64,000 nt of DNA, taken from Leptospirales bacterium. GTDB lineage: Bacteria > Spirochaetota > Leptospiria > Turneriellales > JAOUFE01. The position numbers and the translations under genes were made by a program. The stretch covers positions 729 to 64,728 of the forward strand of contig JBEQLE010000012.1 in assembly GCA_040326155.1 (NCBI GenBank), read 5' to 3'. Below, piece after piece: positions 30,787-34,154 of the stretch. How positions within the stretch are numbered: the first letter of the stretch is position 1; every line of letters starts with the position of its first letter. The notes under the pieces are model-generated. The model was not told where the DNA came from, searched no databases, and was given only the letters and a program-made list of their open reading frames with translations.

Positions 30787-30815
30787 TTGACTAAATAGGG
30801 ACTAATTATTATAGT
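30787..30815 (+). promoter_or_regulatory. Sigma70-type promoter of the SIR2-TIR/STAND operon
   Basis: TTGACT-17 bp-TATAGT, preceded by an AT-only palindromic tract at 30753-30774. Confidence 0.65.
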
Positions 30816-30843
30816 TCTTTTGTCTCTGTTTTTGGGGGTTATA

Positions 30844-32175
30844 ATGAAAGTTTCCTGGAAAGAAAGCAACTGGGATACATTGCTGATGAATATACAAGAA
30901 GGTAACTGTATATTAATGCTCGGTCCCGAAACTCCAATAGAAACCGATGAAAAAAAGCATGCCTTTATCGGTGAACAATTAAATAAGCGTTTGCTTGAGG
31001 ACCTGGAAAAACCGGTTAAAGATAAAAACTGGGCCAGCGAGAATTTCAGTGTGCATGCGATCGCCCAATATTATCTATTAAAAGCGGAAACGGGAAAATC
31101 AGAACTGGCCGTAAAAGTAAAGCAGTTCTTTAGTGAACACAAAGACGATACTACGAAATTTCACCAAAATCTGGCTACTCTCCCTTTTTCTCTGGTTCTG
31201 CAAACTACCCCCGATTTTTCTTATATAAATGCATTGAAAGCCCTGAATAAAGAACCGGCCATTGAATCTTATAATTATAAAGGGCAAGCTCAACAAACGA
31301 TACCGCTGGGGACAATAGATAACCCTTTGGTATATTATCTTTTTGGATCTACTAAAGAAATAAAATCGCTCGTAATTACCGAAAATGATATGATGGATTT
31401 TTTTATCGCAATCGCTTCGAAAGACCCCCCGCTTCCAGGCAATATAATCAATGAATTGCGCGATCAAGAGAAAACGCTACTATTCCTGGGGTTTGGCCTT
31501 CACACATGGTATTTACGAATTTTACTTCATATCTTAAAACTGAATAACAAAGAGAGTCTCTCCTACGCATTTGAATCGATTTCAAACGATAAAATAGATC
31601 AGCTCGAAAGCGTGGCTCTTTTCTACAGAAAAAGCGGCTATAAAATCGAAATGTTTGATAATTCGATAACGGATTTTGCACAAGAACTTGCAGAACGATA
31701 TAAAAAAATTGCGCCACAAAGTTCTGATGAGAAGAAAAAAATAACATCAACTGGTCCCTCCGTTTTTCTTTGCCATGCCGGTGAAGACAAACCATTTGCG
31801 GAAGATTTATTTAACAGGTTGGGCAAAGCAGGTTTTGACCCCTGGCTTGATAAAGAGGCTCTGAGAGGCGGAGACCAGTGGGATTCTGTTATTAAAAAAA
31901 ATCTAGATACTGTGGATTATGTAATTGTTTTGCAAAGTAAAAATATACACGATAAGGTCGTGGGTTACGTAAATAAAGAAATAAACCTGAGTCTTGAAAG
32001 ACAGCTGGAGTACCGACCTCCCATCCGCTTTATCGTTCCGGTGCAAATTGACAATTCACCGCCATTGGAACCACTGGAACACCTTCAAAGCATTAATTTG
32101 AGTTCAGGCGATAATTTTGATGCCTTAATTCAAACCCTGCAAAGAGACCAGCAAAGAAGGAAAAAAGCGGGATAA
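30844..32175 (+). CDS. SIR2-like (SIR2_2, degenerate) + C-terminal TIR domain protein
   Basis: ILMLGPE, LQTTPD, VYYLFGS, LVITEND, LLFLGFGL..WYLR (SIR2_2 pattern); VFLCHAGEDK..WLD..GDQW..YVNKEI..IVPV (TIR_2). ATG at 30844 fits the promoter and RBS. Confidence 0.85.
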   Translation: MKVSWKESNWDTLLMNIQEGNCILMLGPETPIETDEKKHAFIGEQLNKRLLEDLEKPVKDKNWASENFSVHAIAQYYLLKAETGKSELAVKVKQFFSEHKDDTTKFHQNLATLPFSLVLQTTPDFSYINALKALNKEPAIESYNYKGQAQQTIPLGTIDNPLVYYLFGSTKEIKSLVITENDMMDFFIAIASKDPPLPGNIINELRDQEKTLLFLGFGLHTWYLRILLHILKLNNKESLSYAFESISNDKIDQLESVALFYRKSGYKIEMFDNSITDFAQELAERYKKIAPQSSDEKKKITSTGPSVFLCHAGEDKPFAEDLFNRLGKAGFDPWLDKEALRGGDQWDSVIKKNLDTVDYVIVLQSKNIHDKVVGYVNKEINLSLERQLEYRPPIRFIVPVQIDNSPPLEPLEHLQSINLSSGDNFDALIQTLQRDQQRRKKAG

Positions 32176-32183
32176 ACGCAAAA

Positions 32184-34154
32184 ATGTTAAAAAAAGAGAT
32201 AGAAAAGGCAAAAAGGTATCCGGGTTCAAGGCCTTACACAGATAACGACGCAGATCGATTACTCTTTTTTGGAAGAGAAAAAGAAGCACAAGTTTTATTT
32301 CATAAAATTCTTGCAGAAAATCTTACAGTACTTTTTTCAAAATCAGGAATAGGAAAATCGTCCCTGATCAATGCAGGTTTAATGAAACCGTTGAGAGAAA
32401 AAAAATACTGGCCCGTTGTTTGTCGCATCGGGGTTGGAGATACGCCACCCAGAGAAACCATAATTAATACGCTGCAAGAAATGGCAAAAGAAGAGGGTGT
32501 TGAAATTTCTTCTACGGCTGAAAAAAACCAAAATAATTTATGGTATTACTTTAACACAACGGAATTCTGGAGTAAACAAAATATTTTACTGACTCCTGTA
32601 ATTATTCTTGATCAATTTGAAGAGTTGTTCACACTGATCGGAGTTGAAAATGGACAAAGTTTTATTCAAGAATTTTCCGATCTTGTACGAGATAACATTC
32701 CGGATGAAATAGAAGATGTAAATTTACAGGCATTGCGATCAGAAACGGGAAATAACTGTAAAATTTTACTATCCATTCGGGAAGACTTTCTGGCCGATTT
32801 AGATACTCTCACCAATAAAATACCCGCTATCATGAACAATCGTTTTCGTCTTTTACCAATGGGATACGAAGCGGCAAAACTTGCCATTCTAAAACCCTCC
32901 GGATTAAAAGGAGATGATTTTAGCACAACCTCCTATGAATATTCTTCACAATCCATTGAAACGATTATAAGTTTTTTATCTAAAAACCAAAAAAAAAGAA
33001 AAAGACTTAATACCAATACAATTTTATCACATGAAGAAGTAAAAATAGAACCTTTCCAACTTCAAATTATCTGCTCGTACATCGAAAACAAAATTGTACG
33101 TAGAAAAATGAAACAACCGGGCAAAACGATTATTGAAGAAAAAGATTTAAAAGGCCGCAGGGGAATGCAAAAAGTATTGCAAAATTATGTGTCCGATCAA
33201 CTCAACAGCCTTGGAATGTTCAATAAAAAACTCGCTGGAAAGCTATGCAATAAAGGACTGATCAGCCAGAGTGGACGCCGCCTCAGTATGGCGGAGGGAG
33301 AAATTTTACGCCGTTTTCCAATTTCCCGTTATACTTTACAACAACTGGTAAATTTTCGCATATTGCGCACCGAACCCAGGTTGAATGAGAATTATTATGA
33401 ATTGAGTCACGATACATTGATACGGCCGTTCCGGCGCTTACAGGCAAAACGAAAAGCTATGCGTTATCCCATTATGGCGGGAATATTACTGGCCCCTGTA
33501 CTCTTTGCAGTTTTATTTCATCAGAATATTTTGACCTATTACCATCAGAAAAATTTTAATGATTATGCTGTAGATTTTGAAAATTATATGGAAGAACAAC
33601 AGTCAAATAAAAAATCCGGAGTATTAAAACACGCAGAAATATTGTTAAACACAAACAAGTTTCGGGAGTTTCTTGAACTTGCCATCCGTGCAAACCATTT
33701 GGATACGGCTTTGCAGCAATACAAAAAACTTATTCAAAAATCTGATGATAAAAGATATGTTGAAAATATGTATACAACTACTTTAAGTATTTTGCTGGAA
33801 CATAACAAAATAGAATACGAAACTAAAATAATGGTATACTCTATAAAGGCCAAAGCCGGAGACTCGCGCTTCTTTTATCATCTTGGAAAAAAGTTTTATA
33901 AACTAAAAATGTACAGAAATTCCATTGAATGTTTTGATACTATTATAAACAGGAACCCGACTGATGTTAACGCTTTGTATTACAAAGCCCGCGCCCTGAA
34001 CTGGCTGGGTGAAGCATGCCCGGCGGCGTTCGTTTTTGAGACTGCGGCTTCCCACGATAAATCGTTATTACGCAATAAGAACCTGCCGAAAAACCTGAGA
34101 CCTCAGGTACTGGCGCGATGTAAATATGACGTCAGTATTTACAATGAAAAATAA
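32184..34154 (+). CDS. nSTAND1-type P-loop NTPase with single TM helix and C-terminal TPR region
   Basis: YPGSRPY, FFGRE, Walker A SKSGIGKSS, Walker B IILDQFEELF, SIREDF, PFQLQIIC, YELSHDTL; TM YPIMAGILLAPVLFAVLF; TPR FYHLG....KLKMY..SIECFD.II..NP....ALYYKA. Confidence 0.85.
   Translation: MLKKEIEKAKRYPGSRPYTDNDADRLLFFGREKEAQVLFHKILAENLTVLFSKSGIGKSSLINAGLMKPLREKKYWPVVCRIGVGDTPPRETIINTLQEMAKEEGVEISSTAEKNQNNLWYYFNTTEFWSKQNILLTPVIILDQFEELFTLIGVENGQSFIQEFSDLVRDNIPDEIEDVNLQALRSETGNNCKILLSIREDFLADLDTLTNKIPAIMNNRFRLLPMGYEAAKLAILKPSGLKGDDFSTTSYEYSSQSIETIISFLSKNQKKRKRLNTNTILSHEEVKIEPFQLQIICSYIENKIVRRKMKQPGKTIIEEKDLKGRRGMQKVLQNYVSDQLNSLGMFNKKLAGKLCNKGLISQSGRRLSMAEGEILRRFPISRYTLQQLVNFRILRTEPRLNENYYELSHDTLIRPFRRLQAKRKAMRYPIMAGILLAPVLFAVLFHQNILTYYHQKNFNDYAVDFENYMEEQQSNKKSGVLKHAEILLNTNKFREFLELAIRANHLDTALQQYKKLIQKSDDKRYVENMYTTTLSILLEHNKIEYETKIMVYSIKAKAGDSRFFYHLGKKFYKLKMYRNSIECFDTIINRNPTDVNALYYKARALNWLGEACPAAFVFETAASHDKSLLRNKNLPKNLRPQVLARCKYDVSIYNEK

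Follow-up and report, generated by a model that had tools for sequence, protein, structure and literature searches.

The window analysed here is a stretch of 64,000 nucleotides from a Leptospirales bacterium (assembly GCA_040326155.1, contig JBEQLE010000012.1), and the system in question consists of two adjacent genes on its + strand. Gene 1 (30844..32175) encodes a predicted cytoplasmic protein of 443 amino acids in which a domain of the SIR2 fold, apparently dead as an enzyme, is followed by a TIR domain, and gene 2 (32184..34154) encodes a predicted membrane-anchored nSTAND1 nucleoside triphosphatase (NTPase) of 656 amino acids with a TPR-like tail. Both open reading frames (ORFs; 30820/30844-32175 and 32184-34154) and the 8 nt between the TAA of gene 1 (32173-32175) and the ATG of gene 2 are as they had been described in the original prediction, a note made before any database search. 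For gene 1, we favor the ATG at 30844 over the alternative TTG at 30820, because the alignment of homologues begins at its methionine. We consider it fairly probable that the pair is a self-contained two-gene NLR-like switch for conflict or programmed death.

The fusion that had been postulated for gene 1 is borne out by Pfam, which finds SIR2_2 (partial match; 34.4 bits, cut-off at 24.5) and TIR_2 (75.2 bits, cut-off at 28; E 8e-21). The first 290 residues (30844..31713, + strand) form the SIR2_2-like module. An AlphaFold model of the protein, built on 41 homologues, reached a mean predicted local distance difference test score (pLDDT) of 87.4, and its top matches in Foldseek are ThsA (1.6e-15), KomC, Avs5, DSR2 and SIR2/HerA, which together with the Pfam match above cut-off places the module in the SIR2 fold. 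About 89 homologous clusters with the architecture of gene 1 were found in a protein search.

What sets this module apart is its active site. The Asn of TTNYD and the His of KLHG, which we take to be the catalytic residues of ThsA, are expected in SIR2_2 NADases of the ThsA, DSR2 and Avs5 type, and gene 1 has neither. In a profile alignment to the Streptococcus protein SeThsA (7uxt), TTNYD lies opposite 'tsspD' in the family consensus and TTPDF in the window protein, and KLHGD lies opposite 'yLyGs' in the consensus and YLFGS in the window protein. The loss extends through the fused-effector family. We compared 144 relatives, taken from the top 150 hits of an exhaustive profile search and supplemented by a few further sequences. 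In place of the His, 73 of them have Y and 52 have F, while 5 have H; 16 have N at the position of the Asn, and no relative (0/144) has Asn and His together. At the same time, G27, P114, G168, G216 and F217 are invariant in the alignment, and D124, W222 and R225 are conserved as well. Because the catalytic residues are gone while other positions of the fold stay invariant, the module is, judged by its sequence, a conserved pseudo-enzyme rather than a decaying one. The "degenerate SIR2" of the original prediction is thus confirmed, and its further suggestion that this part serves as an NAD-processing effector gives way to a reading as a coupling module.

The TIR domain (31750..32172, + strand; residues ~303-443) presents a different picture. 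Its predicted catalytic Glu379 (codon 31978-31980), in the stretch 'YVNKEI', had been singled out earlier as a residue to check; it is intact, invariant in 41 sequences and aligns with the Glu of the 'WTEYEL' stretch in the TIR of PDB 7uxr. With a TIR fold and this conserved Glu, gene 1 bears the sequence features of an NAD+-cleaving TIR, such that NADase activity can be predicted for it. Among PADLOC models, the domain matches the pAgo-associated Aga_TIR best (7.7e-16), and the ThsB models only at 6.9e-5 and 0.022. Its best profile matches in the PDB are TIR chains of ~420-485 residues (E ~1e-11), AbTIR and SARM1 (3.5e-8). By these comparisons, the domain appears nearest to the TIRs of known NAD+-consuming effectors.

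Gene 2 belongs to Pfam nSTAND1 (PF20703; 103.5 bits against a cut-off of 27.1, residues 12-423). Its residues 1-425 (32184..33458, + strand), which open with the N-terminal signature RYPGxRPF...FFGR, are predicted to form a cytoplasmic module; an AlphaFold model with a pLDDT of 82.8 displays it as NTPase, helical domain and winged helix. Since R11-Y12-P13-G14 already begin the nSTAND1 match, there is no N-terminal effector on this protein, as had been supposed. In 35 aligned sequences including the window protein, R11, Y12, G14, G30 and R31 are invariant, and so are G55, G57, K58 and S60 of Walker A (Lys58 codon 32355-32357) and D143, Q144 and E146 of Walker B (D143-Q144-x-E146); gene 2 thereby has the P-loop motif GxGKS and the acidic Walker B residues expected of an NTPase. 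The protein search yielded 928 homologues, and Foldseek returned generic relatives only, namely archaeal ATPases, ORC/Cdc6 AAA+ proteins, SAMD9, NLRs and Apaf-1. No PADLOC family matched gene 2 at E <= 0.1.

The NTPase module is followed by a single hydrophobic helix (residues 428-446; 33465..33521, + strand), which reaches 1.97 in a Kyte-Doolittle window of 19 residues and is preceded by the basic stretch RRLQAKRKAMR; in the AlphaFold model, it is part of one long helix from residue 410 to 472. The tail (residues 476-655; 33609..34148, + strand) consists in the model of ten helices forming about five TPR-like hairpins, and Pfam detects TPR_1 and TPR_17 in it below threshold, in keeping with the transmembrane (TM) helix and TPR end proposed for this protein. 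In 15 single-TM, long-tailed relatives, lysine and arginine occur 98 times in the 15 residues before the helix and 27 times in the 15 residues after it. At the place of the tail, relatives carry TPR, WD40, Sel1/Ank, FGE-sulfatase, CarboxypepD_reg+TonB_C, DUF642 or PG_binding domains, among which TonB_C, FGE-sulfatase and PG_binding are typically periplasmic; the TPR, WD40, Sel1, FGE-sulfatase and TonB_C tails are strong matches, and some STAND relatives end in a 2-TM hairpin only, or in 6-7 TM helices. From the basic residues before the helix and from the ATPase having to be cytoplasmic, gene 2 is predicted to be an N-in signal-anchor protein with its tail outside the cytoplasm. Because of this predicted location, the idea that the TPR repeats sense cytoplasmic phage proteins as in Avs appears doubtful; both the charge bias and the periplasmic-type tails of the relatives make it unlikely.

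The relationship of the two genes to each other was examined in other genomes. A scan with the gene 1 alignment over one genome per species gave 63 loci, of which 21 are unrelated TIR-only proteins and 42 have the SIR2-like part. An nSTAND1 ORF lies directly downstream on the same strand in all 42 of these (42/42), which include loci with a frameshift-split gene 1 (L026, L039, L050, L051), as well as L046, whose partner gene runs off the contig, and L073, with degraded copies of both genes. They come from Acidobacteriota, Aminicenantes, Actinomycetota, Bacteroidota, Chlorobi, Beta- and Gammaproteobacteria, Myxococcota, Gemmatimonadota, Desulfobacterota and Binatia. All loci in this study stem from pattern-seeded scans and are no unbiased census, and their ORFs were called mechanically, which yields spurious ORFs at loci of high G+C. 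The hidden Markov models used for counting were built from this family, such that divergent partners may have been missed; the exceptions L137 and L212, to which we return below, are perhaps of this kind.

Across 35 pairs, the identities of the SIR2-like module and of the NTPase are correlated with r = 0.93, a value reached by none of 2000 permutations (0/2000). This correlation shows inheritance as a unit, and not binding. A prediction of the complex between the gene 1 protein and residues 1-425 of gene 2 (score 0.31, mark 0.32, made without controls) speaks neither for nor against binding. When a conserved third gene was sought around the loci, none emerged; only five closely related loci from Burkholderiales had synteny in common. 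Together with the sister form described below, these data show a near-obligate pairing of the two genes in other genomes and support the view of gene 1 and gene 2 as one functional unit.

In 60 relatives of the window's genome neither gene was found, the only matches being TIR-only or TPR-only. The window's genome itself harbors a second pair (contig C93:24715-29100), of 466 and 1041 amino acids, whose genes overlap by 8 nt. The two pairs are ~40% identical over the SIR2-like module as well as over the NTPase module. The STAND protein of the second pair has a much longer tail (TPR + Sel1), and its locus is flanked by genes for aspartokinase, a racemase and LepA on one side and for a CarboxypepD_reg protein on the other.

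A further observation concerns a single locus, L025 (730-5011), where a reverse-transcriptase gene and a weakly nSTAND1-like ORF of 1003 amino acids lie just upstream of the SIR2-like/TIR and nSTAND1 pair. The reverse-transcriptase gene may belong to a diversity-generating retroelement, and such elements have been reported to target STAND sensors (PMC10907252).

The TIR domain is not the only effector found on this scaffold. In a sister form, a CHAT protease is located at the N-terminus and the SIR2-like module, 28% identical and with the same dead motifs, at the C-terminus. A metagenome scan with two such proteins gave 80 loci, with 60 SIR2-like ORFs that had room downstream and 14 more that did not. 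An nSTAND1 gene follows directly in 59 of the 60, the exception being L137, and in these STAND partners, too, a basic stretch leads into one TM helix. One metagenome contig (L131, 2-12153) carries two pairs of the CHAT form in tandem.

An exhaustive profile search with the SIR2-like module retrieved 2127 clusters at E <= 1e-30, and 19 representatives, mostly picked for unusual length, were scanned with Pfam. Their architectures include CHAT + SIR2-like + TIR, CHAT + TIR + SIR2-like, SIR2-like + EAD8 + TIR, ParA-like + SIR2-like + TIR and EAD11 + SIR2-like (P0310). A single cluster representative of 1158 amino acids (P0239) unites nSTAND1, a dead SIR2-like module and a C-terminal EAD11 adaptor in one polypeptide.

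We also approached the system from the STAND side, in 201 Acidobacteriota genomes, of which 7 had a match, at 10 places in all. A gene of the SIR2 fold is immediately upstream of the STAND gene in 9 of the 10; at L212, the STAND gene follows an unrelated ORF without a match to the models used. At two of the places, the upstream gene encodes a stand-alone SIR2 protein of 306-365 amino acids with GAGAS, TTNYD and K[MV]HG intact (L213 2700-3797 and L215 2673-3593, both on the - strand), and the partner directly downstream is again nSTAND1 + TM. To judge from their motifs, these pairs look like an "active sirtuin" version of the system.

From its linkage with nSTAND1 across the TIR, CHAT and stand-alone forms, the sirtuin fold looks like a constant coupling module, with TIR or CHAT as the swapped-in effector. 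The simplest reading of this pattern would be that the original effector of the membrane-anchored nSTAND1 proteins was an active SIR2 NADase, and that the sirtuin lost its chemistry after fusion to TIR or CHAT and kept its coupling to the STAND protein, the order of these events being our reconstruction.

How might such a pair work? Our proposal builds on the domain identities, the loss of SIR2 residues, the preserved TIR Glu and Walker motifs, the strict linkage, the swapping of effectors and the topology signals. In this model, gene 2 would be sensor and switch at once, a cytoplasmic STAND ATPase tethered to the inner membrane by one helix, with a variable repeat tail facing the periplasm or the outside. 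Gene 1 would be the effector, its TIR domain carried on the dead sirtuin module, which the STAND protein would use to engage or assemble it; with the original prediction, we infer that the gene 1 protein is physically recruited in trans. An envelope cue, such as a periplasmic component of a phage or predator, envelope damage or another cell, would alter the tail or the helix, and in tail-less forms the membrane segment itself might detect it. The NTPase would then swap its nucleotide and oligomerise, and the pseudo-sirtuin modules would be gathered, possibly as filaments like those of ThsA, KomC and Avs5, because these closest solved SIR2 folds are helical assemblies according to the titles of their PDB entries. 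The TIR domains would thereby be brought together and activated, NAD+ would be depleted, and the cell would stop growing or die. In the sister form, the CHAT protease would be activated in place of the TIR domain.

One can go further and view the pair as a bacterial "transmembrane NLR", an outside-in immune receptor whose hypervariable repeats would detect periplasmic or extracellular cues and, across the membrane, act through a STAND ATPase on a death effector that sits on a pseudo-enzyme adaptor. This adaptor would descend from a SIR2 NADase effector that kept its docking and assembly surface and ceded the chemistry to an appended TIR or CHAT domain, an "effector takeover on a dead-sirtuin scaffold". 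The arrangement would resemble, by analogy, the topology of a Toll-like receptor combined with an NLR-like switch in one two-gene cassette. We put this forward tentatively, as a possibility that falls short of an even chance.

The surroundings of the pair contain several smaller features. A sigma-70-like promoter candidate (TTGACT-17-TATAGT; 30787..30815, + strand) with 10/12 consensus matches lies 29 nt upstream of the ATG at 30844. The pair had been credited with its own promoter, and such a site is indeed present; it is backed by its position only, because promoter-like sites in the 4.2-kb region are no rarer than in shuffled sequence (18 versus 13.2 expected). Further upstream is a palindromic repeat of ~70 nt (~30631..30700) with 17-nt inverted arms (30638-30654 and 30679-30695), of which other contigs of the same genome hold at least 12 further copies with 86-100% identity. 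What had been called a miniature inverted-repeat transposable element (MITE) can be described, more cautiously, as a dispersed palindromic repeat with at least 13 copies in the genome. Several copies have extra common sequence on their left flank, such that the element may form one end of a longer repeat or be an element like the repetitive extragenic palindromes (REP-like). It is probably not part of the two-gene system.

Downstream, the operon ends at a convergent gene, as had been stated, which encodes an OEP/TolC-like protein (34275-35795, minus strand) and is followed by AcrB. A small perfect hairpin with 8-nt arms (34230..34250) between the convergent stop codons is a possible terminator, one missed by the terminator scan. 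The pair as a whole is flanked by purT and an AT3-SGNH acyltransferase gene on one side and by the efflux operon on the other. The stretch from 28250 to 34250, which spans the acyltransferase gene and the pair, has a G+C of 0.31-0.41 compared to 0.42-0.46 in its flanks, and may be acquired DNA. Beyond the efflux operon, 5 kb downstream of the pair, a CHAT (caspase-like) protein of 652 amino acids is encoded (39002-40960, - strand). It was considered as a second effector with a SIR2-like module and rejected (BLASTP E 0.76, with CHAT as the only Pfam match). A protein with TerB and DnaJ domains is encoded at 14123-14845 (- strand); no link to the pair was seen.

Several points weigh against the proposed switch. 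The binding, the trigger, the NADase activity and the phenotype are what we infer from sequence; the topology is called from hydropathy and charge bias alone; and a ligand-binding domain is not obvious in STAND variants that carry just a 2-TM hairpin or a 6-TM bundle. At the 42 loci, just 9 of 221 neighboring ORFs (6/111 + 3/110) have a PADLOC match at E <= 1e-8, and several of these matches are to generic functions (sigma-54 activator, methyltransferase, cyclase). Both copies in the window's genome sit among housekeeping and envelope genes, and in a scan of viral contigs none of the 37 matches had the SIR2-like part, all being TIR-only. Finally, a word-index search for longer SIR2-like proteins (777-2215 amino acids) found none, and the fusion of nSTAND1, SIR2-like module and EAD11 came solely from the exhaustive profile search, as one representative. 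The neighbor count, made with crudely called ORFs, the 2023 version of PADLOC and no background rate, gives no support for defence islands, and the enrichment of defence genes that homologous loci might have been expected to display is not visible in it.

The main rival reading is that the same machine serves a purpose other than phage defence, as an envelope-stress, kin-recognition, anti-predator or developmental death switch that responds to extracellular or periplasmic cues unrelated to phage. Such a role would fit the predicted extracytoplasmic tail, the few defence neighbors, the housekeeping flanks of both copies and the lack of viral copies among the contigs scanned, and the authors who defined nSTAND1 link related systems to multicellular bacteria, in passages of two of their papers (PMC8195603, PMC7159879). 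However, the sporadic distribution, the hypervariable tails, the swapping of the death effectors TIR and CHAT and the presence of diverged copies in one genome are the usual marks of immune receptors, and parts of phages do cross the periplasm during infection. We regard a role unrelated to phage as rather unlikely.

It is also conceivable that the TIR domain, as in Thoeris, makes a signal of the cyclic-ADPR type, with the dead sirtuin pocket or the STAND/membrane protein as its receiver and executor. Thoeris TIR domains make signals, according to parts of a recent preprint (bioRxiv 10.64898/2025.12.03.692087). The Rossmann-like core of the pseudo-sirtuin is kept (G27, D124, G216-F217) and could still bind a nucleotide, and the whole-length Foldseek alignment to ThsA (SIR2-SLOG) sets the TIR domain at the place of the ligand-binding SLOG. 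Yet the same scaffold also carries a CHAT protease in place of the TIR, and no protease could produce a signal of this kind; moreover, the ThsB matches are much weaker than those to effector TIRs, and no separate conserved gene for a receiver or effector was found around the loci. For these reasons, a signal-making TIR seems to us distinctly improbable.

The roles of the two proteins could, in principle, be reversed, with the cytoplasmic SIR2-like/TIR protein as the sensor and the STAND protein damaging the membrane. Some STAND partners consist of little beyond the NTPase and a 2-TM hairpin or 6-7 TM helices, and so resemble membrane-disrupting effectors. Against this, it is the STAND tail that varies and gene 1 that holds the classic, swapped effector domains; the large folded repeat domains (TPR, WD40, FGE-sulfatase) that follow one TM helix are suggestive of receptors, and at two loci a stand-alone active SIR2, an effector of the NADase type, occupies the position of gene 1. 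A reversal of roles is, in our estimation, less probable again than a signalling TIR. That the locus is a decaying remnant without present function, for which one might invoke the lost SIR2 residues and the sub-threshold TPR matches of the window copy, is very improbable indeed, given that both ORFs are intact and tightly spaced, that the residue loss is family-wide and accompanied by strong conservation elsewhere in the domain, that the TIR Glu and the Walker motifs are kept, and that truly degraded copies (L073, L039) look different, being split or truncated.

If the proposed two-gene switch is correct, what would it add? STAND/NLR-like systems with TIR or SIR2 effectors were already known, and the pairing of TIR with nSTAND1+TM has been tabulated computationally. 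It appears to be new that the constant partner of the membrane-anchored nSTAND1 clade is a sirtuin fold, and that this fold is active as a stand-alone protein, to judge from its motifs, and catalytically dead in all fusions with TIR or CHAT, which offers a concrete and testable example of a pseudo-enzyme turned immune adaptor. Also apparently new is the predicted location of the sensor outside the cytoplasm, which would mean surveillance of the envelope and not of cytoplasmic phage proteins. The module's 2127 clusters at E <= 1e-30 make up a large family that, apparently, has no experimental representative in the literature searched. At two genes and 3.3 kb, the cassette is small enough to be tried in a laboratory host.

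With respect to earlier descriptions, nSTAND1 was named by Kaur, Iyer, Burroughs and Aravind (eLife 2021, PMC8195603), who in passages of the main text mention it as a clade that has FGS sensors along with effectors or adaptors at the N-terminus. Supplementary file 1 of that paper contains "TIR+DrHyd" 103 times, often as "TIR+DrHyd -> nSTAND1+TM(+BetaPropeller)", and "nSTAND1+TM" 461 times. These operons have the same gene order as ours and come from Acidobacteria, Aminicenantes, Bacteroidetes and Verrucomicrobia, matching phyla found here, and the window genes, being co-directional, fall into this class of a TIR gene upstream of nSTAND1+TM. The 8 "SIR2" strings in the file include none adjacent upstream of nSTAND1, the locus-tag prefix GTO45 of loci found here does not occur in it, and no DrHyd-like Pfam model matches gene 1 at E <= 0.1. 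Probably, the pairing is already in this table as "TIR+DrHyd", with the sirtuin fold unrecognised or otherwise labelled. As a candidate for the constant module, EACC1 (Kaur et al. 2020) was ruled out, since it is described, in the relevant part of that paper (PMC7159879), as a single-TM domain paired with caspase proteins.

Two preprints touch on related matters. Sections of a 2026 preprint on ParA (10.64898/2026.10.19.760177) describe analogous single-TM receptor-like NTPases with TIR partners; it does not contain the string "SIR2", and its two mentions of sirtuins concern other effector contexts. The 2025 preprint on TIR signalling (10.64898/2025.12.03.692087) excluded the TIRs of Avs proteins from its set and, in the portions consulted, does not mention the pair. 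In the literature searched, which did not extend to bioRxiv supplements, no paper described or tested the SIR2-like/TIR and nSTAND1 pair. No match to a characterised system turned up either, PADLOC giving nothing for gene 2 and TIR-domain hits only for gene 1.

A comparison with individual systems can begin with the pAgo-associated TIR effectors, whose PADLOC model is closest to our TIR domain (Aga_TIR, 7.7e-16) and which are presumably those of SPARTA / TIR-APAZ. There, as here, TIR and sensor come from different genes, and the TIR is switched on by oligomerisation that the sensor drives, much as proposed for the window pair. However, the sensor is a nucleic-acid-guided Argonaute instead of a STAND NTPase, and neither a sirtuin fold nor a membrane anchor is present. 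The likeness to Toll-like receptors and SARM1 is a working analogy, homology being limited to the TIR. Toll-like receptors have a repeat domain outside, one TM helix and TIR signalling inside, and SARM1 is a TIR NADase restrained by a regulatory domain and activated by assembly. In the window system, as opposed to Toll-like receptors, an NTPase switch stands between helix and TIR, and a second protein carries the TIR.

For the N-terminal domain of gene 1, the closest match in both structure and sequence is ThsA of Thoeris (SIR2-SLOG; PDB 8bto, 7uxt, 6lhx), and in both proteins a SIR2 fold is followed by a Rossmann-like domain. The chemistry would be distributed differently, in that ThsA has an active SIR2 NADase and a SLOG that senses a TIR-made signal, whereas gene 1 has a dead SIR2 and a TIR with its catalytic Glu; no SLOG or Macro domain in gene 1 was matched by Pfam. 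The window system also differs from Thoeris in having no ThsB partner. It does not classify as Thoeris, with the ThsB models at E 6.9e-5 and 0.022 and the NCBIfam model of type III ThcB4 at 24.2 bits against a cut-off of 220.

Avs5 (AVAST type 5; PDB 9jap, 9nc9) likewise joins a defence-type SIR2 fold to a STAND NTPase, in one polypeptide, and its SIR2 domains rank 12 and 16 among the Foldseek matches of gene 1. Measured against Avs/AVAST, where effector, STAND and sensor share one polypeptide, the window pair falls outside, as gene 2 has no PADLOC match at E <= 0.1 and effector and STAND are on separate genes. Compared to Avs5, it has two genes, a STAND protein of the nSTAND1 clade, a membrane anchor and a tail predicted to face outside, and its SIR2 appears catalytically dead, with TIR or CHAT added as the effector. 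The pairs of stand-alone SIR2 and nSTAND1 at L213 and L215, in turn, look like a split version of the Avs5 logic.

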